DNA from: Limisphaerales bacterium
GTDB taxonomy: Bacteria > Verrucomicrobiota > Verrucomicrobiia > Limisphaerales > UBA8199
Direction: 5' to 3'
Length of the DNA: 64,000 nucleotides
Assembly (NCBI GenBank): GCA_044223735.1
Contig: JBGALR010000038.1
Location: 2,147-66,146 of the forward strand
Part shown: positions 32,517 through 60,804 of the stretch, in pieces
Layout: each line of letters opens with the position of its first letter
How positions within the stretch are numbered: position 1 is the stretch's first letter
The notes under the pieces: generated by a model
Databases searched by the model: none
Told to the model about the DNA's origin: nothing
Seen by the model: the letters and a program-made list of their open reading frames with translations, nothing else
Program-made: the position numbers and the translations under genes

Positions 32517-33575
32517 AGCTTATGATTTAGTGCATTTGCCGAAGCAGCGCAAGACGCTTGCGGCAGCGCGGCAACGCAAGGTCGCAGCCCACCGTATACC
32601 TGAGGAGGTCATCCGCCGACGGCATATCACCAGCTCTCCTGAAAAGCCCCGCTTCATTGTTGTTCCTGCCTCATTCGTCCAAAATCCCAAATTTTCACTT
32701 AGGGATTCTCCCATTCGACATTCGAAACTCAGCATCGCACTCCATTTCGCTTCCATTTGGTTTCCTCATTTTGCATTCGAAAATCTTCATTCTGCATTCA
32801 AAAGTTGGGTTCGTTTTTCTTTTTCTTAATGTTTAAAAACGTCGCAAGTTATTGTCAGTAAGATGGTTGCGAGATTTTAAAGTTGGGTTCGTTTGGTAAA
32901 ATTTACATTTACGCAAACTTCCATCTCACCCCGAAACCACGCTGCGCAACGGTACGCAACATGGCACACCATGCCGTAACCCTCCACGACTCGGCCCCAC
33001 CAGCCCGCAATCATTCCCATCCCCGTCACGTCCCCAACATCCCTCCATATCCAGCCGCCCCCCATCAAGCCCGACAAGCCACCGAAATCCTCCCCCACAC
33101 GTTGTAATTTCGCGTCTTTGACATGATTCTTCGGCCCTCCGCGACTCCGCTGCTCCGCGGTTCAATCCCTTCCATATTCAAATGTCAAAGATCATCGCCC
33201 CGCCCGGCCCTGTCCGCAGGCCCCGGACGGGACACACACACCAGTTTAACTCGCACGCATAATATTACAAGAACTTTCTAGGAACTTCGTAAGAAAAGCG
33301 GAATCGCCGGGGACGCGGGAATCCCGCGCCAGGAGCCGGCGGCCATCCTGGATCATGGCCCTCGAGTCACTGCGCCGGACGGAGATCAAACCAGCCAGGC
33401 ACTCGTCCGCGCGCCTGCCGGGCCGTGGCTTGCGGCCGATGAGAGGCGGCGAGGACGATAGTCATTAGCCTGCGGGCCGTGCAATTCATCTCCTCCGCCC
33501 ACTTTACTGGCAGCGAAGCGGCACCGCACCGCTTCCCCAACCAGCTTGGACGCCCCCGCGGGACATGCGGCTTGA

Positions 33576-33840
33576 TGCCCCTGAGTTAATCCCCGAATCT
33601 AAAATGCACAATTTGACCTCGGCAGGATCTGAGGTGGTAGGGCGGCCTCTCCGAGGGCGCCGCGATAGAAAAGTGTTCCTCGGCGGTCTCCGCGACCGCC
33701 CAAATAGTCTTGCCCGAAGCCGCGCCGTAATGGAAACCCGACTCGGACGGGGAATGAGAATATTTGATCGGTCCTTGAGACCGCTGAAGCATAACTTTTT
33801 CTTTCGGTCCCGCATGCGGGAGAGAGGTCGCCCTACCTCC
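33576..33840 (+). repeat. Structured repeat family, copy 1 (contains a ~208 nt rod-like hairpin 33633-33840)
   Basis: 5' arm ggtggtagggcggcctctcc (33633-33652) is the inverted complement of 3' arm gagaggtcgccctacctcc (33822-33840). Internal long-range complements are ggcggtctc/gagaccgc, gaccg/cggtc and caaata/tatttg. The 5' ~130 nt (gcccctgagttaatccccgaatctaaaatgcacaatttg...) are shared with copies 2 and 3. Confidence 0.6.
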
Positions 33841-33870
33841 TAAAAGTTCGCTAGCTGTTTTGCGGTTGCT

Positions 33871-34140
33871 GCCCCTGAGTTAATCCCCGAATCTAAAATG
33901 CACAATTTGGCCTCGGCAAGACCTGCGGTGGTAGGGCGGCCTCTCCGAGGGCGCCGCGATAGAAAAGTGATTCCCCGGCGGTCTCCGCGACCGCCCACAT
34001 ATTTTCCGGAATGCTTCGTCCCGGAATTTTGGATTCTTGTGACTAAATACGTATGGAGCATCAAGAATTATCGGAGCACGGTTGCCGGAATGGCGGAAAG
34101 CTTGCGATCATTCCATTGCCGGGCAAACATTGGAGCGGAT
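33871..34140 (+). repeat. Structured repeat family, copy 2 (alternative 3' module)
   Basis: It shares the 5' ~130 nt with copy 1. Its 3' ~150 nt (...tttccggaatgcttcgtcccggaattttgg...gccgggcaaacattggagc...) are shared with copy 3 at 42058-42340, with most positions identical by eye. Confidence 0.6.
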
Positions 34141-34420
34141 TAGAAATTGGACGGTTCAAATAGATATTAGAACCGCAGGCGCCGTGCTAGACAAAGGCTC
34201 AAATGACCAAAGCCATCAGGCCAATGTTTTAAAATTATAGGACTGAGCCTTTCACTCGCTCCCTCCTCGGACGGGGTCGAAAGCCGGCAGGCGACGACCA
34301 ACTATTTTGACCTGCTGGGGCGCATTTGGAAAACAACCCTGCCAGATAATACGAGTGTGACCAACGATTATTACACCACTGGCGTGCTCAGACTGACTCG
34401 ATGCGGCTTCACGGCTGGCG

Positions 34421-36250
34421 GTGATGTCCGACGGCACCAATTCCGCGACGTATACCTACCTTGCCAATTCGCCGCTGGTGAGCCAGATTGCCTTCAAGCA
34501 GAACGCCACCACCCGAATGACGACGACGAAGGTTTACGATTTTCTGAACCGGCTGAAATCCATCAGTTCGGTGTCGGCGGTGACGACCAACAGCTTCGTT
34601 TACTCCTACAACAACGCCAATCAACGCAGCGGCGTGACCAATGTGGATAATTCGAAGTGGGTTTATCAATATGACGACCTCGGCCAGGTTATCTCCGGCA
34701 AGAAATACTGGAGCGACGGCACTCCCGTGGCGGGCCAGCAGTTTGAGTATGCCTTCGACGACATTGGCAACCGCACCTCGACCAAGGCGGGTGGCGACCA
34801 GTCGGGCGCCAACCTGCGCTCGGCCACCTATGACGCCAATGCGCTGAACCAATACGACAGCCGCACCGTCCCCGGCGCGGTGGACATCCTCGGTTCGGCG
34901 ACCAATGCCGCCACGGTGACCGTCAATAACCAGCCGACGTACCGCAAGGGCAATTATTTCCGAGACCAGCTTGCGCTCAACAACGGGTCCGCCGCAGTGT
35001 GGGCCGGCATCACCAATGTGGCGGCGCTGAACAACGGAACCAACTCGGACATCGTGGCCACGAACCTCGGTTACGTGTTCTTGCCAAAAACCCCGGAGAG
35101 CTTCTCGTACGATGCCGATGGCAATTTGACCCAGGATGGCCGCTGGCAATACACTTGGGACGGCGAGAACCGCTTGGTAAACATGACCAGTCTCACCAAC
35201 GCTCCTACTGCTTCCAAACTCAAGTTGGACTTCGCCTACGACTACATGGGCCGCCGCGTTCAGAAAACGGTCTCGACCAACAACGGCAGCGGCTATTTTC
35301 CGCTCTACACCAACCGCTTCATCTATGACGGCTGGAATCTCCTGGCCGAACTGAATCCGTCGCACACCGTCATTCGTTCATTTGTGTGGGGAACCGATTT
35401 GAGCGGCACGATGCAAGATGCAGGCGGAGTGGGCGGACTGCTGGTAGTCTCGGATTCCGCGCTCGGATCAAGTTTCGTCGCGTTCGACGGAAATGGAAAT
35501 GTGAACGGACTGACGCGCATCACCGACGGCAGTACGGTCGCACAGTACCAGTATGGTCCCTTCGGTGAAGCCATCCGCGCCACCGGCCCCATGGCCAAGG
35601 CCAATCCCTTCCGGTTCTCGACCAAATACCAGGATGACGAGACAGACCTGCTTTACTACGGGTATCGGTATTACAACGCCAGCACGGGACGGTGGGGAAG
35701 CAGGGATCCTCTAGGTGAGTTAGGATTTGAAGCGACACGTGTCTCGGATGATGAAGAGATCATTGGTAGCCCGAATTCTTACGTCTTCATCGGCAACACG
35801 CCAACGACGCAGGTTGATTTGCTTGGCTTGCGCTCCTGCAAAGAGATCTGCAAGGCAATAATTGACGGCAGCTATCCCCCCCCTATTGCCGGGTTTGTTG
35901 GGTGTGAAGATGGAAAGAAATGTCCCTGCAATGCTAAATGGGATGCGATGGGATACAATCCTGGTGATTGTCCCGAAATTGATAAATCTGTGCTAAAGCA
36001 CGAGAAAAAGCATTTTGATGATGTCAGTTGCCCCAAGGGCTGCGGCTTGAAGATTGCCCCATGGAAAGACGATATGTCTAACGAAGATAAGGAGAAGTCC
36101 GAATGTGAGCGTGCAGAAGAAGACATAAAGACTTTGCAGAAGCTTGCTAAAAAGCTCACTGGCAATTGCCAGACTGTCGCAAAAAACCTGCTTGATTTTA
36201 AGCAGAAATATGTGAAGGACCATAACTGTGACAGCTTTAAGAAGAAATGA
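34421..36250 (+). CDS. RHS/YD-repeat protein, 5'-truncated fragment with C-terminal cysteine-rich HExxH-containing toxin-like tip
   Basis: YD repeats (YTYLANSPL..., VYQYDDLGQV..., FEYAFDDIGNRTS...) and the RHS core ending ...GYRYYNASTGRWGSRDPLGE...PNSYVFIGNTPTTQVDLLGL, the PxxxxDPxGL-type junction. The ~140 aa tip after it has 10 Cys and HEKKH. Upstream RHS-like sequence (34207-34420, ...TTNYFDLLGRIWKTTLPDNTSV...) is in a different frame, so the gene is frameshifted. There is no N-terminal RHS portion, because the upstream DNA is the repeat family. Confidence 0.8.
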   Translation: MMSDGTNSATYTYLANSPLVSQIAFKQNATTRMTTTKVYDFLNRLKSISSVSAVTTNSFVYSYNNANQRSGVTNVDNSKWVYQYDDLGQVISGKKYWSDGTPVAGQQFEYAFDDIGNRTSTKAGGDQSGANLRSATYDANALNQYDSRTVPGAVDILGSATNAATVTVNNQPTYRKGNYFRDQLALNNGSAAVWAGITNVAALNNGTNSDIVATNLGYVFLPKTPESFSYDADGNLTQDGRWQYTWDGENRLVNMTSLTNAPTASKLKLDFAYDYMGRRVQKTVSTNNGSGYFPLYTNRFIYDGWNLLAELNPSHTVIRSFVWGTDLSGTMQDAGGVGGLLVVSDSALGSSFVAFDGNGNVNGLTRITDGSTVAQYQYGPFGEAIRATGPMAKANPFRFSTKYQDDETDLLYYGYRYYNASTGRWGSRDPLGELGFEATRVSDDEEIIGSPNSYVFIGNTPTTQVDLLGLRSCKEICKAIIDGSYPPPIAGFVGCEDGKKCPCNAKWDAMGYNPGDCPEIDKSVLKHEKKHFDDVSCPKGCGLKIAPWKDDMSNEDKEKSECERAEEDIKTLQKLAKKLTGNCQTVAKNLLDFKQKYVKDHNCDSFKKK

Positions 36251-36591
36251 AAACAACCTTTTGCTCCTCTGTGGCGACGGTTTGTCTTTGTTTGTTGCCG
36301 ATCTTGTTCGGTTGCCTGTTGGGATGTTCTACGACCGTGGTCCCGCAAAAACATATTGAGCCAGCGCCGGACTTTAGCAGGTCAGCGTTGGAAAGAGCAG
36401 ATCTGGCTTTGAAGACGGCTATACGTGTTTTCGACGAAAAAGTTGGACTGGATAATTGTAAATTTAGGATCGACATGCGAAGGGTCTACGGGGCATGGAG
36501 AATAACATTTGTTTATATCCCGGAGGCGCCTGACTATTCTGGTGTGGTAATTGTGCATGATAATGGTGAGACGGAATCTTTTCTAAAATAG
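36247..36591 (+). CDS. Lipoprotein, candidate cognate immunity protein of the RHS C-terminal toxin
   Basis: The start overlaps the rhs stop by 4 nt (ATGA). Signal peptide with lipobox LLGCS. 114 aa with no recognisable enzymatic motif. This is the classic toxin/immunity gene arrangement. Confidence 0.55.
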   Translation: MKTTFCSSVATVCLCLLPILFGCLLGCSTTVVPQKHIEPAPDFSRSALERADLALKTAIRVFDEKVGLDNCKFRIDMRRVYGAWRITFVYIPEAPDYSGVVIVHDNGETESFLK

Positions 36592-36673
36592 CCGTCGCCA
36601 AGACTTGCCGGCTTTCGCTTCCCCTTAAAAGAGCTACGTCGCGAAACACGGCAAGACTTGGCTCCCCCCTGTG

Positions 36674-36982
36674 AAGGGTCGGTCCTAGAATTATGACACT
36701 TTTGCGCTGGACACGGGTTTCGAGGTCTGCCTAAGCTGGGCGCGCCATGGCCAGGCCGATTCGCATTCAGTATCCGGGCCGGTTGGGCTTGAGCGAAACG
36801 GATCTGGAGGAACTGCCGCCGGGCGCAGTGGAGAAAGTGGCTTTGGCGTGTCAGTCAGGCCGTGAGCCGGATGCAGACCAAACCATCCCGCAAGCTGAAA
36901 AAACTGCGGGATCAACTGAACCGGGGAAACGAATGACCAGGTCGAGGCAGCCAAAGTGTCATGATTCTAGGACCGACCCCTT
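36674..36982 (+). mobile_element. MITE-like internal-deletion derivative (copy A) of the IS200/RAYT-like element
   Basis: Terminal inverted repeats aagggtcggtcctagaattatgacactt ... aagtgtcatgattctaggaccgacccctt. It retains only the first 11 codons of the transposase (MARPIRIQYPG) and the 3' subterminal region. Confidence 0.7.
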
Positions 36983-37043
36983 TAAAGTCGGCCTGTCAAT
37001 AGGGGATTACAAATTCTGGCTCAAACCGGAAGGAAAAAAATAT

Positions 37044-38014: not shown

Positions 38015-38279
38015 AATTCTGACTCCTCTCCGTCGGATATTGCAAGTTGCTCCGAATTTTGTATGGGAATTGATGCCGGAATTAGTGCGGTTGCACTGCA
38101 GATGGGGTTTTGAGGGAGTGCTTTAAGCTAATTGCGATTCCCAGGCCGGTCCGGAATCAATATTTGAGTGCGGCTAATCCGTAATGGCCGGGGGAGCCGC
38201 GGGTAGAGATCTTTGTGGATATTGTCGATGGCAACCGCTTCTTTCGGGATACACGTTTTGCAATCGGATAAGGCGATTG

Positions 38280-38663
38280 AAGGGGTCGGTCCTAGAATTA
38301 TGACACTTTTGCGCTGGACACGGGTTTCGAGTTCTGTCTAAGCTGGGCGCGCCATGGCCAGGCCGATTCGCATTCAGTATCCGGGCCGGTTGGGATTGAG
38401 CGAAACGGATCTGGAGGAACTGCAGCCGGGCGCAGTGGAGAAAGTGGCTTTGGCGTGGTGGTTGAGGCGACGCACCACGGCATCGTTGCGCTGGGCCACC
38501 GGGCGCTTGCGGATGGGCCACTACAGCCGGGTCAGCCAGGCCGTGAGCCGGATGCAGAACAAACCATCCCGCAAGCTGAAAAAACTGCGGGATCAACTGA
38601 GCCGGGGAAACGAATGACTAGGTCGAGGCAGCCAAAGTGTCATAATTCTAGGACCGACCCCTT
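38280..38663 (+). mobile_element. MITE-like internal-deletion derivative (copy B) of the IS200/RAYT-like element
   Basis: Same inverted repeats as copies A and C. It retains the first 11 codons plus a longer 3' segment (ggcgtggtggttgaggcgacgcaccacgg...) that is identical to the 3' part of copy C. Confidence 0.7.
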
Positions 38664-39985: not shown

Positions 39986-39993
39986 TGGCTGTG

Positions 39994-40625
39994 AAGGGGT
40001 CGGTCCTATAATTATGACACTTTTGCGCTGGACAGAGATTTCGATGTCCGTTTAGATTAGGGCACCATGGCCAGGCCGATTCGCATTCAGTATCCGGGGG
40101 CGGTGTATCACGTGATGGCGCGGGGCAATCACGGACAGAAAATCTTTGCCGATGACGCCGATCGCAAAACATTCCTCTCGGCGCTGGCGGAGGCGTGCGC
40201 CAAGACCCGCTGGCGCATTCACGCTTACGTCCTGATGGCCAACCACTACCACCTGCTGCTCCAGACACCCGAACCCAATCTCGTGGACGGCATGAAATGG
40301 CTGCAGGGCGTTTACACGTTGCACCACAATTCGCGGCACAAGGTCCGGGGACATCTCTTTCAGGGACGTTACAAGGCCATTCCGGTGGAAACTGCGGACG
40401 GCACCGGGGATTATTTCGGCGTGGTGGTTGAGGCGACGCACCACGGTATCGTTGCGCTGGGCCACCGGGCGGTTGCGGATGGGCCACTACAGCCGGGTCA
40501 GCCAGGCCGTGAGCCGGATGCAGACCAAACCATCCCGCAAGCTGAAAAAACTGCGGGATCAACTGAACCGGGGAAACGAATGACCAGGTCGAGGCAGCCA
40601 AAGTGTCATAATTCTAGGACCCCTT
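39994..40625 (+). mobile_element. IS200/IS605-superfamily (RAYT-like) element, copy C, with ~29 bp terminal inverted repeats
   Basis: Inverted repeats aaggggtcggtcctataattatgacactt ... aagtgtcataattctaggac(cgac deleted)ccctt. It carries the longest tnpA remnant. Confidence 0.75.
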
Positions 40626-40666
40626 TACAATTAACGGCACCTCGCCTTGCGCCTTGCGATATTTGA
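40067..40666 (+). CDS. tnpA: Y1 HuH (IS200/RAYT-type) tyrosine transposase, N-terminal catalytic half only
   Basis: MARPIRIQYPGAVYHVMARGNHGQKIFADDADRKTFLSALAEACAKTRWRIHAYVLMANHYHLLLQTPE...GHLFQGRYKAI has the HuH motif HYHLLL and the GRYKA Tyr motif. After about residue 110 the ORF runs into the 3' subterminal repeat, and its stop lies outside the element. It is therefore probably non-functional. Confidence 0.7.
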   Translation: MARPIRIQYPGAVYHVMARGNHGQKIFADDADRKTFLSALAEACAKTRWRIHAYVLMANHYHLLLQTPEPNLVDGMKWLQGVYTLHHNSRHKVRGHLFQGRYKAIPVETADGTGDYFGVVVEATHHGIVALGHRAVADGPLQPGQPGREPDADQTIPQAEKTAGSTEPGKRMTRSRQPKCHNSRTPLQLTAPRLAPCDI

Positions 40667-40705: not shown

Positions 40706-41902
40706 TTAAAAAAGATGCGTTATGCGCATTGCAAAGATGGCAAACAACAATCCGACCAGCCCCGAAAACATCGTCCCATTCCACGCCATGGTAGCCGCTG
40801 CCGCCGGCCGGGGGAAATCGGGCGTCACGCCAGCCGCCAAAATCCGGTCATAAAGATGCGGATGGGTCGTCCGGTTCTTCGCGGTGACGGCCGGCAGGAG
40901 GTTATCTGCATAGAGCCGGGTCAGGGCGCGGGCATAAGTTCCCGCATCACCCTGATGGTCTGTGGCCATCAGGTCCGCCCGTGATTCCAGCTTCCGGCTG
41001 ATGCTTCGGTAAATGCGGGGAACGCCGAGAGTGACTAGGAGCAACCCGTAAAAGGCAAAAAGGCCAAAGGCGTGCAGCAACGGATTGAAGAACATCCACG
41101 GTAGAAATGACATCATTTGGATGGAGCGTGAATATCGGGATGTCCTTGATTCGGTGAGGTGCGCCAATTCATGAGCGCAGACACTGGCAATTTCATCATC
41201 GGAGAGCAATTCGAGCAACCGTTCCGTGAATAACAGCTGGCGTGTGTGCGGAAGCGCGGCGGCTTGGGCCATGGGGGAACGCATCAATACGACTTCACGA
41301 AACGGAACTTTCATTCTGGTGGAAGTATCGCGGGCAATTTTCTCCAATCGCTCGGTGGCCGGTTGGAACCAGCCGAGCATTTTGCCAAACCAAATCAGAC
41401 CGCCACGCACCCAAATCACCCATAAAACAACCACCGTCCCGCCAATTCCCAGCGCCATTGGATTGAACTCGTCCGGCATGAATACCGCCGCGCCGAGGAA
41501 TACGAACCAGATCAGAAACCGCAACAGGATGCCAATGCCCACTGAACGCAGCAGTTCACGCATCGGAATGCGTGGGAAAAGCTCGTGATCGAAGGGCAAC
41601 GTTCCGGCGTGGGCGCCTAAAACTGAAACCATGCCAGTGAACAACCAAAGCGGTGACGAATCCGGCCATAACAGCAACACAGCCAGCGTGAGAACGCCCG
41701 GAACCGTCAGGAGATTGGACCGCGCCGCGACGCTGACCGGATACACCAACCGCGCCTGTTCAGACCAATGCGTGTCCTGGCTGCGTCGCCAGGGAATTAA
41801 CGCCAGCCAATTCGTAATAAAGGTCAAGCCCGCTGCCAGCAAGCCCGCGCCGATGATGATCATCCCATTCAAGCTTGGTGGAGTAAAACAACCGGCAGGC
41901 AA
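40706..41902 (-). CDS. M48-family (HtpX/Ste24-like) integral membrane zinc metallopeptidase
   Basis: Multiple TM helices, HExxH motif (CAHELAHL), and a downstream Glu-rich segment, as in peptidase M48/M56. Confidence 0.75.
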   Translation of the reverse strand: MPAGCFTPPSLNGMIIIGAGLLAAGLTFITNWLALIPWRRSQDTHWSEQARLVYPVSVAARSNLLTVPGVLTLAVLLLWPDSSPLWLFTGMVSVLGAHAGTLPFDHELFPRIPMRELLRSVGIGILLRFLIWFVFLGAAVFMPDEFNPMALGIGGTVVVLWVIWVRGGLIWFGKMLGWFQPATERLEKIARDTSTRMKVPFREVVLMRSPMAQAAALPHTRQLLFTERLLELLSDDEIASVCAHELAHLTESRTSRYSRSIQMMSFLPWMFFNPLLHAFGLFAFYGLLLVTLGVPRIYRSISRKLESRADLMATDHQGDAGTYARALTRLYADNLLPAVTAKNRTTHPHLYDRILAAGVTPDFPRPAAAATMAWNGTMFSGLVGLLFAIFAMRITHLF

Positions 41903-41989
41903 AAGCTAAAGCGGAAACCTTACTCTGCATAAGCCGAATCAGGACAACGCGCCATGCAGGATAGGGGGACTCATGTCATTTTTGAGCGT

Positions 41990-42340
41990 TGATAATTCGC
42001 ATGCGGGAAAGAGGCCGCCCTACCACCTCGAAGTTCCCTTACGATCTCGCGACCCGATGCCCCTAATTTAATGCCGAAATCGAGGGCTCACAATTTGACC
42101 AGGAAATGACTGCGGTGGTAGGGCGAGCTCTCCGAGCGCGCCGCGATAGAAAAGTGTTCCCCGGCGGTCTCCGCGACCGCCCAAATATTTCCGTGAAACG
42201 CTTCGTCCCGGAAATTTGGATGCTTGTGACTAAATGCCTGTGGAGCATCAGGAATAATCGGAACGCGGCCACCGGAATGGGGGCAAGCTTGCAATCATTC
42301 CATGGCCGGGCAAACATTGGAGCAGGTTAGAAACGGGACG
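41990..42340 (+). repeat. Structured repeat family, copy 3, preceded by a ~40 nt remnant of the copy-1 3' arm
   Basis: 41990-42029 (cgcatgcgggaaagaggccgccctaccacctcgaagttc) matches the 3' end of copy 1. 42058-42340 matches copy 2 over its full length. It is in direct orientation relative to copy 2 and brackets the 34.1-42.0 kb island. Confidence 0.6.
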
Positions 42341-42347
42341 GCTAAAA

Positions 42348-43562
42348 TCATTTTGCCGTTTTTTTGATGGCTCCGGCCTCCTTTAGCAATTTCAATGTCG
42401 GACCCAATGGCAATGCTTCCACCGTACCCTGAAAACCTCGCACGGTTTCAGCGCGAAACATGGAGTCATAAATCGCCTCTTCCGTAGCGTCGGCCACCGC
42501 CTTGAACAGCGGCGACATCCGGGCATTTGAGATCTCCTTGAAATTGTGAATTTCCGCATCGAATTGCCTTCGGCACCCGGCGGCGGTGGAAAAAGCGATA
42601 GCGTAGTCGCCCGACCCGTTGGACATGCTTGAACCCGTCCGCGCCAATCCAACCATCGCGCGCGATGCAAGCCGTTCGAGGTTGCGGGAACTTAGCGGAG
42701 CATCAGTCGCCACCACGATCATAATGCTGCCGTTGCCGGAATTGTTTCCTGGTTCGCGCCGCAACAATTCACGCTCCACATGAACCCCATCAATGGATAG
42801 TTCTCCGCCAAAATTACTCTGCACCAGCACGCCAACAGCATAGCCCCCGGATTCTTTCGGCAGCAGGCGCGAACTGGTGCCAATGCCGCCTTTCCAACCA
42901 AAGGCGACCGTTCCAGCGCCCGCACCGACGCAGCCCTCTTCCACCACACCGTTGGTCGCGTTTTCCAAGGCGTTAAAGACGTCCTCTGCGCGAATGGGCC
43001 GGGCGCGAATGTCATTTAGCAGGCCGTCGTTCGTTTCGCCGACCAACGGGTTGATGGAACGCACGTCCGCCATGCCCGGTTGCGCGAGCAGCCACGAGAC
43101 CATCGCGTCGGCAACTTTCCAGACACTCAACGTCCCCGTCAGCACAATAGGCGTTTCCAGTTCACCCATTTCCCTGACCTGGGTGATGCCCAGTAATTTA
43201 CCATATCCGTTGCCGACAAAAATTGCGGCGGGCACACGCTCCTTAAACACGTTTCCGCCGTGCGGAAAAATTGTCGTGACCCCAGTATGAAATCGTTCAC
43301 CGTCAATGACACTCACCTGGCCGACGCGCACGCCGGCCACGTCCGTGATCGCGTTTAACGGGCCAGTCGGCAACGTGCCAATTACAATTCCAGCTTCGCG
43401 CGCACGTGGCCGCGGTTCAGGCAGTGCTCCATTCGTAGGCAGGGAAACTCCGAGGACCGTGACGAAAGCGCAGACAAGTTGAAAGCGGAGCGCGACGCAT
43501 TTTTTCATAAAACTTGGTTGCGTCCCAACCGCGGGCGCGCGATTGACGACGGGGAGGCTCAC
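42348..43562 (-). CDS. DmpA/OAT-family (peptidase S58) L-aminopeptidase / D-Ala-esterase-amidase
   Basis: Signal peptide, ...GIVIGTLPTGPLNAITDVAGVRVGQVSVIDGERFHTGVTTIF..., ...GAGAGTVAFGWKGGIGTSSR..., the P1/DmpA self-processing family pattern. Confidence 0.75.
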   Translation of the reverse strand: MSLPVVNRAPAVGTQPSFMKKCVALRFQLVCAFVTVLGVSLPTNGALPEPRPRAREAGIVIGTLPTGPLNAITDVAGVRVGQVSVIDGERFHTGVTTIFPHGGNVFKERVPAAIFVGNGYGKLLGITQVREMGELETPIVLTGTLSVWKVADAMVSWLLAQPGMADVRSINPLVGETNDGLLNDIRARPIRAEDVFNALENATNGVVEEGCVGAGAGTVAFGWKGGIGTSSRLLPKESGGYAVGVLVQSNFGGELSIDGVHVERELLRREPGNNSGNGSIMIVVATDAPLSSRNLERLASRAMVGLARTGSSMSNGSGDYAIAFSTAAGCRRQFDAEIHNFKEISNARMSPLFKAVADATEEAIYDSMFRAETVRGFQGTVEALPLGPTLKLLKEAGAIKKTAK

Positions 43563-44561: not shown

Positions 44562-44840
44562 GAGCCTGGGTTATGCTGATTTCGGAAATTCGCGCTCACC
44601 CCTCACGCCTTGGATGGCTAAAATCAGAAGTCCGACCGCTAAATATATTTCGGAGTCGTGCACATCAAGAATTTGTCGCCCGGGCAATTATTAAAGAGTT
44701 CGTTTGTATCTGGACATCAAAAATCGCAAATCCGCTTGGAAATCAAAGTTTTTTAAAGCGAGATGCCATATTGACGCAGCCCCTTAAAAACCAGCGTGTC
44801 CGCCGTAATCTGTCGGCTATCCGTTAACACTACGGAGCCT

Positions 44841-45027
44841 AAGGGCCTGGAGTTATGACGCTTTTATGCCGGACAATGTCTTCGAGTTGCGTTTGAGTTG
44901 GGGCGGTTTATCACGAGCAGGCGCGTGGAACCGCGGGCAGAAATCTTTGTCCATGATGGCGATCACAAAAGGTTCGCCAGGCATTACCGCCTCGCGCGGC
45001 TGAAGTCGCAAACGGCTGTCACCCCTT
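44841..45027 (+). mobile_element. Degraded relic of a fourth, more divergent IS200/RAYT-like element copy
   Basis: aagggcctgg-agttatgacgcttttatgccggacaatgtcttcgagttgcg... aligns with the left end of copy C. ...gtttatcacgagcaggcgcgtggaaccgcgggcagaaatctttg... aligns with the AVYHVMARGNHGQKIF coding region but contains a stop. The right end is ...aagtcgcaaacggctgtcacccctt. Confidence 0.4.
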
Positions 45028-58627: not shown

Positions 58628-58989
58628 CAAGAGGTTGACTACGACCAGTTTGCAAGGTCGGCTTTGGCTTACCTTGACAACTTACCGCGTTATGTTATTA
58701 AGAGGTTGTTAGTGTTAATGCAGCCTAAGCCTGGCTTTCCTTCCTGGAGGCCAGCGCGGGGAACCCAAATTCCTCGAACCTCGGGTTCGGGGACGGGGCG
58801 CATGGCCGCGGGTAACCGTGGCCAAGGTCACTTCCATGACCGAGCCCGTCAGCTAACCTCGCCGGCAATTGGAAGGGCGATCCTCTAGGATCCCGCTGGT
58901 GCGGGACACCCACGTTCACCCCGTCTGAAAACTCGCGTACGCTTGCGTACGCGAACTGGCCGCGGTGTGCGGCGGGATTGGAGATTGGT

Positions 58990-60804
58990 ATGAGAATGGT
59001 GTTTGAACTTGCCTGGGAACATCCAGTTATCACTGGATTTATCATATTGTTTATCTTTTCGTGGTTAACGCCGACCTTGAGTGGCGCCGTGTTGATTCGG
59101 GAGCGTCAGGTAGGGATCGTAGTGAAGAAATTCGGTGCGCGCTCACTGCCGCCGGGGCGGCTGGTCGCGTTGAACGGCGAATCCGGGTATCAAGCCGACA
59201 CCCTGCCGCCAGGGCTGCACTTCGGCTACTTCCGCTGGCAATATCGCATCATGAAAATGCCGGTGGTCACGGTGCCGCAGGGCGAGATTGCGCTCGTGCT
59301 CGCGGCGGATGGCGCCTCCATCCCGTCCGAGCGCATCCTGGGAAAGGTGGTCGATTGCGACAACTTCCAGGACGCGCGCCGCTTCCTGCTTGAAGGTGGC
59401 GAAAAGGGTCGTCAACTTGGCATTCTCACCGCCGGCACGTATCGGATCAACCTCGCGTTGTTCACCGTGATTCGCTCTGAAAACGCGGAGGACAATGGCA
59501 TGTCCTCATTCCAACTCCATTTGCAGCGCGTGGAGCCGGACAAGGTCGGCATTGTCACGACACTCGACGGCCGGCCGATTGAGGCGGGCGAAATTGCGGG
59601 CCCCACGATTCCGGCGCACGAGAATTTTCAGAACGCCCAGGCGTTTCTCGATGGCGGTGGCCGGCGCGGTTTGCAGGAGCAAATCCTGTTGTCCGGGACA
59701 TGGAACCTAAACCCGTGGTTCGTGCAGGTGGAGCAAGTCCCGATGGTTCAAATTCCGATCGGCTACATCGGCGTGGTAATCTCCTACGTGGGCAAGGCGC
59801 ACGTGGATGTCAGCGGCCTTGAGTTCAAGCACGGTGATCTGGTGAATCAAGGCCACAAAGGTGTCTGGGTGACGCCGCTGTATCCGGGCAAACATCCGTT
59901 GAACACCGCCGTCATGCGGGTCGAACTGGTGCCGACGACCAATATCGTCCTCAACTGGGCGACGCGCACGGAAGCGCATCATTTCGACGAGAAGCTGCAG
60001 TCCATCACGGTGCGCTCGAAGGACGGCTTCGCGTTCAACCTGGACGTGGCGCAGATCATCCATGTGGGCGCTTTGGATGCGCCAAAGGTCATCTCGCGCG
60101 TTGGTTCGATGCAAAACCTCGTGGACCACGTCCTGCAACCAATCGTCGGAAATTATTTCCGCAACTCCGCGCAGGATTATACGGTGCTCGATTTCCTTGG
60201 CGCGCGCAGCCAGCGCCAGGTCGAAGCCGCGGAGCATATTCGCGCCGCCATCGGCGCGTACGACGTGCAGGCGATTGACACCTTGATCGGCGATATCAAT
60301 CCGCCGGCGCAATTGATGCAGACGCAGACCGACCGCAAGATCGCGGAGGAGCAGCGCAAGACTTATGAGGTGCAGGAGGCCGCGCAGAAGCAGCGCCAGC
60401 AACTCGTGCGTGAAACGTCCATCGCGGATATCCAACACCAGGTCGTCGGCGCGGAGCAGGGCGTGAATATCGCCGAGCTACAGGCCAACGCGCAAATCAA
60501 ACAGGCGACCGGCGAAGCGGAATCGGTGCGCTTGCGCGCCCATGGCGAAGCCGAGGCGATTCGCGCCACGGGTAACGCCAAGGCCGAAGCCTATCGCGCA
60601 GGCGTGCAATCGCTTGGTGCGCAGGGTTACACCGTCATGCAACTCATGCAGATCGTCGGCGATCGCCACGTGCGCATCGTCCCAGACGTCGCCGTAAGCG
60701 GAGCGAGCGGCAGCACGGGCATCGTGGACGGCCTGCTCGGCGTGATGTTGCGCCAGCAAACGAGCGCTCACGCGGAGCCGAAAGAAGAACCTGCGAAGTC
60801 ATAG
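58990..60804 (+). CDS. SPFH/band-7 (flotillin-like) protein with long coiled-coil C-terminal region
   Basis: N-terminal TM helix, SPFH domain, then Ala/Gln/Glu-rich heptad-like region (...QEAAQKQRQQLVRETSIADIQHQVVGAEQGVNIAELQANAQIKQATGEAE...). GGAG lies 5 nt before the ATG at 58990. Confidence 0.85.
   Translation: MRMVFELAWEHPVITGFIILFIFSWLTPTLSGAVLIRERQVGIVVKKFGARSLPPGRLVALNGESGYQADTLPPGLHFGYFRWQYRIMKMPVVTVPQGEIALVLAADGASIPSERILGKVVDCDNFQDARRFLLEGGEKGRQLGILTAGTYRINLALFTVIRSENAEDNGMSSFQLHLQRVEPDKVGIVTTLDGRPIEAGEIAGPTIPAHENFQNAQAFLDGGGRRGLQEQILLSGTWNLNPWFVQVEQVPMVQIPIGYIGVVISYVGKAHVDVSGLEFKHGDLVNQGHKGVWVTPLYPGKHPLNTAVMRVELVPTTNIVLNWATRTEAHHFDEKLQSITVRSKDGFAFNLDVAQIIHVGALDAPKVISRVGSMQNLVDHVLQPIVGNYFRNSAQDYTVLDFLGARSQRQVEAAEHIRAAIGAYDVQAIDTLIGDINPPAQLMQTQTDRKIAEEQRKTYEVQEAAQKQRQQLVRETSIADIQHQVVGAEQGVNIAELQANAQIKQATGEAESVRLRAHGEAEAIRATGNAKAEAYRAGVQSLGAQGYTVMQLMQIVGDRHVRIVPDVAVSGASGSTGIVDGLLGVMLRQQTSAHAEPKEEPAKS

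Follow-up and report, generated by a model that had tools for sequence, protein, structure and literature searches.

The central part of a stretch of 64,000 nt from a Limisphaerales bacterium (contig JBGALR010000038.1; the whole stretch is referred to below as the window) contains a family of related repeats, and the question raised by this locus is what kind of element they are. The original prediction described one copy as a rod-like hairpin of about 208 nt (copy 1) and two further copies as sister modules of about 280 nt (copies 2 and 3), all sharing a 5′ segment of about 130 nt. Genes of structured RNAs, att-like sites, a new class of MITE and palindromic repeat elements were all named there as candidate identities. 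Judged from comparisons of sequence, the region is probably a small cluster of GTAG-tagged REP/REPIN-type palindromic DNA repeats and not an RNA gene family. The host is a relative of Pedosphaera among the Verrucomicrobia; the homologues of its S58 peptidase carry the names Verrucomicrobia or Pedosphaera parvula, the closest of them being 83% identical.

All three copies were recovered at the predicted sites, with a homology that extends slightly past the predicted ends. The leader and core of copy 1 (33566-33706) are 93.7% identical to those of copy 2 (33861-34001) and 82% identical to those of copy 3 (42049-42187). Moreover, positions 33811-34161 and 41998-42348 form a single contiguous match of 81% over 353 nt, and the matching block runs from the last 33 nt of the rod through the spacer to the end of copy 2. 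The 16-nt terminal motif GGTAGGGCGNNCTCTC was found six times in the window at ≤2 mismatches, compared with 0.31 occurrences expected, and five of these six are located within the copies. The features of the two loci, with the assignments as interpreted here, are the following.

33566-33633 (+): leader 1, located 5′ of the GTAG tag; spacer of a tail-to-tail REP arrangement, with no promoter-like site
33634-33706 (+): P core 1, a degenerate head-to-head REP dimer and the 5′ arm of the rod
33637-33661 (+): left REP unit of P core 1, GTAG and a 9-bp stem with a 3-nt loop, followed by a spacer of ~20 nt
33682-33700: decayed right REP unit of P core 1, GGCGGTC/TCCGC/GACCGCC, with 2 nt lost and a CTAC tag that reads CAAA
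33707-33760 (no strand): rod centre, partly self-complementary in the fold, with no homologue elsewhere
33761-33843 (-): Q, which forms the 3′ arm of the rod; a P core in inverted orientation that has diverged (~65%)
33808-33821: 14-nt perfect palindrome CCCGCATGCGGG in Q, the point where the duplicate at 41998 breaks off
33822-33837 (-): GTAG-tagged end of Q
33844-33927 (+): spacer and leader 2
33928-34001 (+): P core 2, with a REP unit at 33931-33955 and a decayed right REP at 33977-33995
34002-34161 (+): R module of copy 2, the ‘sister’ 3′ module, 83% identical to 42188-42348
41998-42030 (-): Q-arm remnant, left-truncated at the CGCATGCGGG palindrome, with its GTAG-tagged end at 42009-42024 (-)
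42031-42114 (+): spacer and leader 3, 65% identical to 33844-33927
42115-42187 (+): P core 3, with a REP unit at 42118-42142 and a decayed right REP at 42163-42181
42188-42348 (+): R module of copy 3, in which the homology to copy 2 stops exactly at the stop codon of the S58 peptidase gene

The order along the cluster is Q(←) leader P(→) centre Q(←) leader P(→) R. The succession Q(←)-leader-P(→) is a tail-to-tail arrangement, so that successive REPs change orientation.

Within the shared 5′ segment, conservation centres on a core of 74 nt, and the segment of 130 nt as a whole appears to be composed of a leader of 65 nt and one decayed head-to-head REP dimer, namely this P core. The REP unit is a sequence of 25 nt with the design GTAG + GGCG-NN-CTC / TCC / GAG-N′N′-CGCC, that is the GTAG tag and a hairpin with a 9-bp stem and a 3-nt loop, of which eight of nine pairs are formed in the window units. 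The building block is a REPIN-like, head-to-head dimer of ~75 nt, in which a left unit reading GTAG-GGCGNNCTC-TCC-GAGNNCGCC is followed by a spacer of ~20 nt and by an inverted right unit. In the dimers of the window the right unit is decayed by the loss of 2 nt and by mutation of the CTAC tag, which reads CAAA. Copies 2 and 3 would each consist of a leader and a P core, followed by an unrelated R segment of 160 nt. Only three canonical and two degenerate units were found in the 64-kb window, all of them intergenic and confined to the two loci.

Genome and metagenome collections were scanned with a pattern derived from the rod arms. The scan yielded 16 further REP units of identical design in the contigs L004, L007, L011, L014, L017, L020, L023 and L030; as these external units were retrieved with a pattern from this element, their invariant columns are partly fixed, and free variation is confined to the NN positions, the spacers and the right-hand units. 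The GTAG tag was invariant in 19 of 19 units, including those at 33637-33640, 33931-33934 and 42118-42121, although GTAGGGCG belonged to the pattern used for the scan. Stem pair 5 is mismatched in all three window units and in no external unit. Inverted REP pairs with the GTAG tags pointing outward and 17-45 nt apart were present in six metagenome contigs (L011, L014, L017, L020, L023 and L030), and tandem REP units were present in a Pirellulaceae MAG (L004 and L007). Fourteen other pattern matches with an identical spacing of 64 nt were discarded as belonging to one conserved protein-coding gene, and a few others as chance. L011 was considered as a possible case of a REP-flanked RAYT and rejected, its ORF of 189 aa being by eye unlike a Y1 transposase.

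The dimer organisation is not confined to the window. The 74-nt core and the reverse complement of the rod 3′ arm align end to end with head-to-head REP dimers of 75-100 nt, and a profile HMM of the window shared segment matched these dimers at profile positions 60-136 (nhmmer, filters off) with E-values of 4e-8 (L020), 3e-6 (L030), 8e-6 (L023) and 4e-5 (L017). The same profile matched the 3′ arm of the rod itself (33843-33761, minus strand, E=3.5e-5). In the MAFFT alignment A3, which includes the reverse complement of the rod 3′ arm, the correspondence runs end to end through left REP, spacer of ~20 nt and right REP. The expectation that the copies might be palindromic repeat elements was thus borne out, since both the termini of the rod and the conserved core that the copies share are probably GTAG-tagged REP units in inverted dimers, homologous to REP dimers from other PVC-type sequences.

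Two observations were made on the external dimers themselves. In three contigs of metagenome Ga0123354 (L017 185-285, L023 215-330 and L030 175-285) the dimer is located within a longer palindrome of the form ...TCTGATGGGATTGCG[dimer]CGCCCGATCCCATCAGA..., and the outer flanks differ between the contigs, which points to a multi-copy composite palindromic element there. In L020 (2400-2490) the REP dimer is apparently located inside an ORF, with coding-like sequence on both sides.

Compensatory base changes, the search for which had been proposed with the original prediction, were detected in the short local REP hairpins and not in the long hairpin. For the single-unit hairpin, eight distinct variants were 97% paired and gave seven double-change cells, compared with 3.1 in shuffles (0/500), and the two variable stem positions of the REP unit covary. 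When the two local hairpins were evaluated on ten dimer sequences, 89.9% of the cells were paired, four pairs showed a compensatory change and the covariation score was 0.136, compared with 0.040 in shuffles (0/500). The long hairpin across units, evaluated on the dimers, was 77.9% paired with 0 compensatory pairs, and every shuffle was at least as good. Within the window, stem pair 6 of the local hairpin is swapped from C-G to G-C between copies 1 and 2 on the one hand and copy 3 on the other. The conserved entity is thus likely to be the short REP hairpin and not the rod. Variable bases that covary within the 9-bp hairpins and not across the long hairpin argue for a rod that is an inverted pair of decayed dimers.

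The folding data are consistent with this. The rod (33632-33841) is an imperfect inverted repeat of ~210 nt, with a self-inverted alignment of 65% over 221 columns (E=2e-13). The end-to-end fold claimed for copy 1 was reproduced, including the closing stem of 19 bp and all of the inner complementary blocks that had been named, with a minimum free energy of -103.5 kcal/mol for the RNA compared with -76.8 +/- 4.4 for shuffles (z -6.05). The opposite strand of the rod folds comparably (z -5.77), as does the rod with DNA parameters (z -5.80). What copy 1 displays is the structure of a palindrome in DNA. For copies 2 and 3 the folds were no more stable than those of shuffled sequences (z -0.35 and -0.28), and the two predictions disagree with each other; the description of the modules as structured therefore holds for copy 1 (z about -6) and not for copies 2 and 3 (z about -0.3). 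The closing stem of the rod begins with G-GTAG-GGCGGCCTC-TCC-GAGGGCGCC, i.e. with GTAG followed by a local 9-bp/3-nt hairpin. The rod thus appears to be an inverted pair of two decayed REP dimers around a centre of ~55 nt, which may have arisen by inverted duplication of a dimer, and it would fold end to end on either strand because the two dimers sit in inverted orientation. The 3′ arm left at 42 kb finds a perfect partner (20/20) in the 5′ arms of copies 1 and 2, whereas it does not pair perfectly with its own neighbour.

Segmental duplication and truncation account for the relation between the two loci. The remnant of 40 nt from the 3′ arm that had been described ahead of copy 3 was confirmed, both by a profile match at 41995-42040 (nhmmer E=1e-4) and by the contiguous block of 353 nt. 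The 42-kb locus is best described as a left-truncated, 81%-identical duplicate of the rod tail, the spacer and copy 2, and the breakpoint of the duplicate falls within the perfect palindrome CCCGCATGCGGG (33808-33821). The original prediction also emphasised that the two module types recur in the same order at both boundaries of the island. The order does recur, but one truncated segmental duplication suffices and no independent assembly is needed. Both loci would descend from a composite of ~600 nt with the order leader-P-Q-leader-P-R, and the module order would be repeated because this composite was duplicated once as a segment and truncated at 41998. The second copy, at 42 kb, would have been truncated inside Q at the small perfect palindrome, and the island of RHS-orphan and Y1-transposase genes would now separate both copies of the composite.

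The frame-shifting indels reported between the copies are real and 1 nt in size, and the accompanying claim that conservation is not at the level of protein holds as well, no frame being conserved between the copies and none of the six ORFs overlapping the copies having a Pfam match. The R module was considered as a coding sequence and rejected, since none of the frames can be read through both copies unless a frame shift is assumed, and since the substitutions are mostly non-synonymous. A comparison of the spurious ORF spanning copy 2 with 5.8 billion predicted proteins gave no match. Pattern scans of viral contigs and blastn against plasmids gave nothing, and for the leader, the rod centre and the R modules no homologue was found in the contigs of relatives, among the 5.8 billion predicted proteins, in viral contigs or in plasmids.

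The neighbourhood was analysed for the genes located between and beside the two loci. Between the loci lie an RHS fragment, low-G+C toxin/immunity-like ORFs, three elements bounded by terminal inverted repeats (TIRs) and a gene for an M48 peptidase. The principal features are the following.

34243-36250: RHS fragment, 5′-truncated, with a frameshift near 34400 and YD-repeat coding from ~34243 in another frame
34421-36250: ORF with an Rhs-associated core
36671-36985 and 38278-38663: TIR-bounded, MITE-like internal-deletion derivatives of the Y1 element, each located just upstream of an orphan ORF
39992-40626 (+): Y1 (HUH) transposase element with TIRs of ~33 nt (AAGGGGTCGGTCCTAGAATTATGACACTTTTGC) unrelated to the GTAG REPs; Pfam Y1_Tnp 45 bits
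42348-43562 (-): gene for an S58 (DmpA-type) peptidase, convergent to copy 3

The Y1 gene (40067-40666) contains HYH and GRYKA motifs, and its best NCBIfam match was a REP-associated tyrosine transposase with 40.6 bits, which falls short of the cutoff of 80. At 44833-44895 a further TIR-like copy, the fourth and a degenerate one, was noted. In the interval 34243-36591 the RHS ORF is followed by low-G+C (45-48%) ORFs without a family match, as in orphan toxin/immunity arrays. In four contigs of relatives (L033-L036), which were reached via S58 homologues, the region downstream of the peptidase is not conserved, no related element was found and no empty site could be defined. An exact look-up of the MIOX protein of the window returned only a Logan contig of 2.7 kb, which ends short of the element.

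The element was subsequently compared with known systems of palindromic repeats. Members of the GTAG REP superfamily, which includes families in Opitutus terrae and Planctomycetes, have reported stems of 5-13 bp and loops of 2-20 nt, and in their clusters the units are repeated along with the DNA that flanks them (Di Nocera et al. 2013, PMC3733652). The units described here share with them the unpaired GTAG at one end of a short GC-rich stem-loop (here 9 bp / 3 nt), inverted dimers with outward tags and a spacer of ~20 nt (the criterion being 20-100 bp), clusters that repeat units with flanking DNA and a host from the PVC superphylum; the tags of the rod also point outward, and the unit of 25 nt lies within the 20-40 bp given for a short imperfect palindrome. 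A high copy number and a dispersal mainly through extragenic DNA belong to the definition of the superfamily. The present units differ from it in the very low copy number in the 64-kb window and in the decay of the right-hand partners. The sequence type GTAGGGCG-NN-CTCTCCGAG-NN-CGCC was absent from the text and supplements of PMC3733652 and from the wider literature searched. Intragenic REPs have been reported for O. terrae, and their peptides (e.g. VGPALAAG, PMC3733652) differ from the translation of the present unit, VVGRPLRGRR.

A REPIN is by definition a pair of inverted REPs separated by a spacer (PMC3337134), and REPINs are further defined as abundant populations replicated by a single-copy RAYT which is itself flanked by them (Bertels & Rainey 2011; PMC3116915, PMC3337134). 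The P core has the REPIN layout and the rod repeats it on a larger scale. In a REPIN system both REPs of the doublet are intact and the doublets form a near-identical population; the window contains three P cores of 93-96% identity, each with a right-hand REP that lacks 2 nt and the tag. Unlike usual REPINs, the rod of ~210 nt is about twice the common size and built from two dimers. A RAYT gene flanked by the same REPs is not located within the window; the only Y1 gene, at 40067-40666, has unrelated TIRs of 33 nt, and the flanking of the only nearby Y1 transposase by these TIRs and not by the present REPs is a point against the reading as a REP cluster. Further points against it are the small number of units in the window, the mismatch at stem pair 5, the lost tag of the right-hand partners, and the leader and R modules, which have no homologue in the collections searched. 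In the BIMEs of Enterobacteria, a mosaic of REPs in alternating orientation with alternating conserved spacers between them is likewise found, but the REP sequence types differ. The motif classes of BIMEs and their binding of IHF and gyrase have been defined for Enterobacteria. A further resemblance, to TIRtrons/TIRYT, concerns the neighbouring Y1 element, whose TIRs are unrelated to the GTAG units: the Y1 gene of the island has long TIRs starting with AAGGGGTCGG, close to the GGGGWSAS motif reported for TIRs flanking RAYT-like genes, and short TIR-bounded derivatives are located nearby (PMC3733652).

Taken with the search results, GTAGGGCG-NN-CTCTCCGAG-NN-CGCC is best filed as a new sequence type within the known GTAG REP / REPIN / BIME-like kind, documented here as covarying head-to-head dimers in Verrucomicrobia- and Planctomycetes-type sequences. 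REP units arise and spread as single-stranded DNA hairpins which are recognised and cut beside the GTAG by a RAYT-type HUH tyrosine transposase, and once in place they are passive hairpins at gene ends and recombination-prone repeats. The window copies may be regarded as decayed relics of REP dimers that are now multiplied by local duplication, flanking DNA included. The cluster would thus display the decay of REPs and their copying along with flanking DNA beside an RHS toxin island, and a false lead would be removed, the ‘rod’ being a DNA palindrome of REP units and not a new RNA. To our knowledge, REP clusters in the PVC superphylum have hardly been studied.

The pattern of conservation within the copies bears on whether the dimers are merely relics. 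The P cores are 93-96% identical among the copies (core 2 being 96% identical to core 1 and 93% to core 3). Leader 1 is 91% identical to leader 2 and only 68% to leader 3; between the loci the leader reaches only 65-68% and the R module 83%, and the difference between P core and leader was significant (Fisher P=1.4e-5). Constraint, gene conversion and a younger age are all possible causes of the conservation of the P core. A different reading, to which we give little credence, is that the 74-nt P core is actively maintained and not a relic, with the dimer-of-dimers clusters serving as preferred recombination or landing sites that shuffle RHS/Y1 cassettes, or with the P core acting as a selected protein-binding or RNA 3′-end element. 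Active maintenance would explain an identity of 93-96% inside flanks that have drifted to 65-83%. If it were true, REP clusters of Pedosphaera-like Verrucomicrobia would capture and shuffle RHS orphan-toxin cassettes and Y1-transposase elements, and if the conservation of the core reflects function, a small handle on the role of REP clusters in the PVC superphylum would be gained.

The cluster of decayed REP dimers, which remains the preferred reading, was also weighed against the identities named in the original prediction. The suggestion of att-like sites, in which the ~350-nt direct repeats (33811-34161 and 41998-42348) would be attL/attR-like junctions of a site-specific or Campbell-type integration of the RHS/Y1 island, is unlikely. 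The repeats are direct, lie 8187 nt apart and bracket the lower-G+C (45-48%) RHS-orphan region with its mobile-element genes, which speaks for such junctions. However, they are long and only 81% identical, unlike att cores, with a divergence that is very uneven along the repeat (65% to 93%), and the same core occurs in a third, tandem copy. In addition, the island ORFs tested gave no match to an integrase or recombinase domain, and the interval beside copy 3, which holds the M48 peptidase gene, has ordinary G+C.

Very unlikely, too, is a new class of MITE, with copy 1 as a conventional deletion derivative of a DDE-type IS with TIRs of ~19 bp and copies 2 and 3 as broken left halves. The length of ~210 nt, the 19-bp TIR and the missing coding capacity of copy 1 do agree with the definition of MITEs quoted in PMC3733652, but no target-site duplication is present around 33632-33841 (the left flank reads ...atctga and the right flank taaaag...). 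Moreover, the termini are homologous to GTAG REP units, which have a covarying local hairpin of their own, the window contains no parent IS with these ends and no match was obtained in plasmids or viral contigs.

Least probable of all is the novel structured RNA family of the original prediction, a 6S-like rod and a sister RNA of ~280 nt with a common 5′ domain, for which the very stable rod, the better conservation of the P core than of its flanks and the weak hairpin followed by a T-run (+ strand) at the end of copy 3 could be cited, but against which stand a rod whose opposite strand folds equally well, sister modules that are unstructured and differ in their predicted folds, a long hairpin without covariation, a 42-kb remnant 3′ arm whose pairing with its neighbour is poorer than that with the 5′ arms of copies 1 and 2, no promoter-like site, a T-run of copy 3 that falls inside the coding sequence of the S58 peptidase, and no match to an Rfam family even at E up to 10. 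No sigma-70-like promoter was found, and terminator-like sites were not above expectation. A known RNA family such as 6S, tmRNA or RNase P is likewise not indicated, the Rfam comparison having given only chance-level matches at E up to 10 for 33400-34400 and none at E up to 1 for 41900-42450.

The hairpin and T-run after copy 3 (+ strand) overlap the last codons of the S58 gene. When the whole window was compared with Rfam 15 at gathering thresholds, the only family found was a c-di-AMP riboswitch at 58.7 kb. This riboswitch (RF00379, 58712-58882, + strand, 55.9 bits, E=3e-10) is located ~95 nt upstream of a gene (58978-60804) for an SPFH/Band_7-domain protein of 608 aa.
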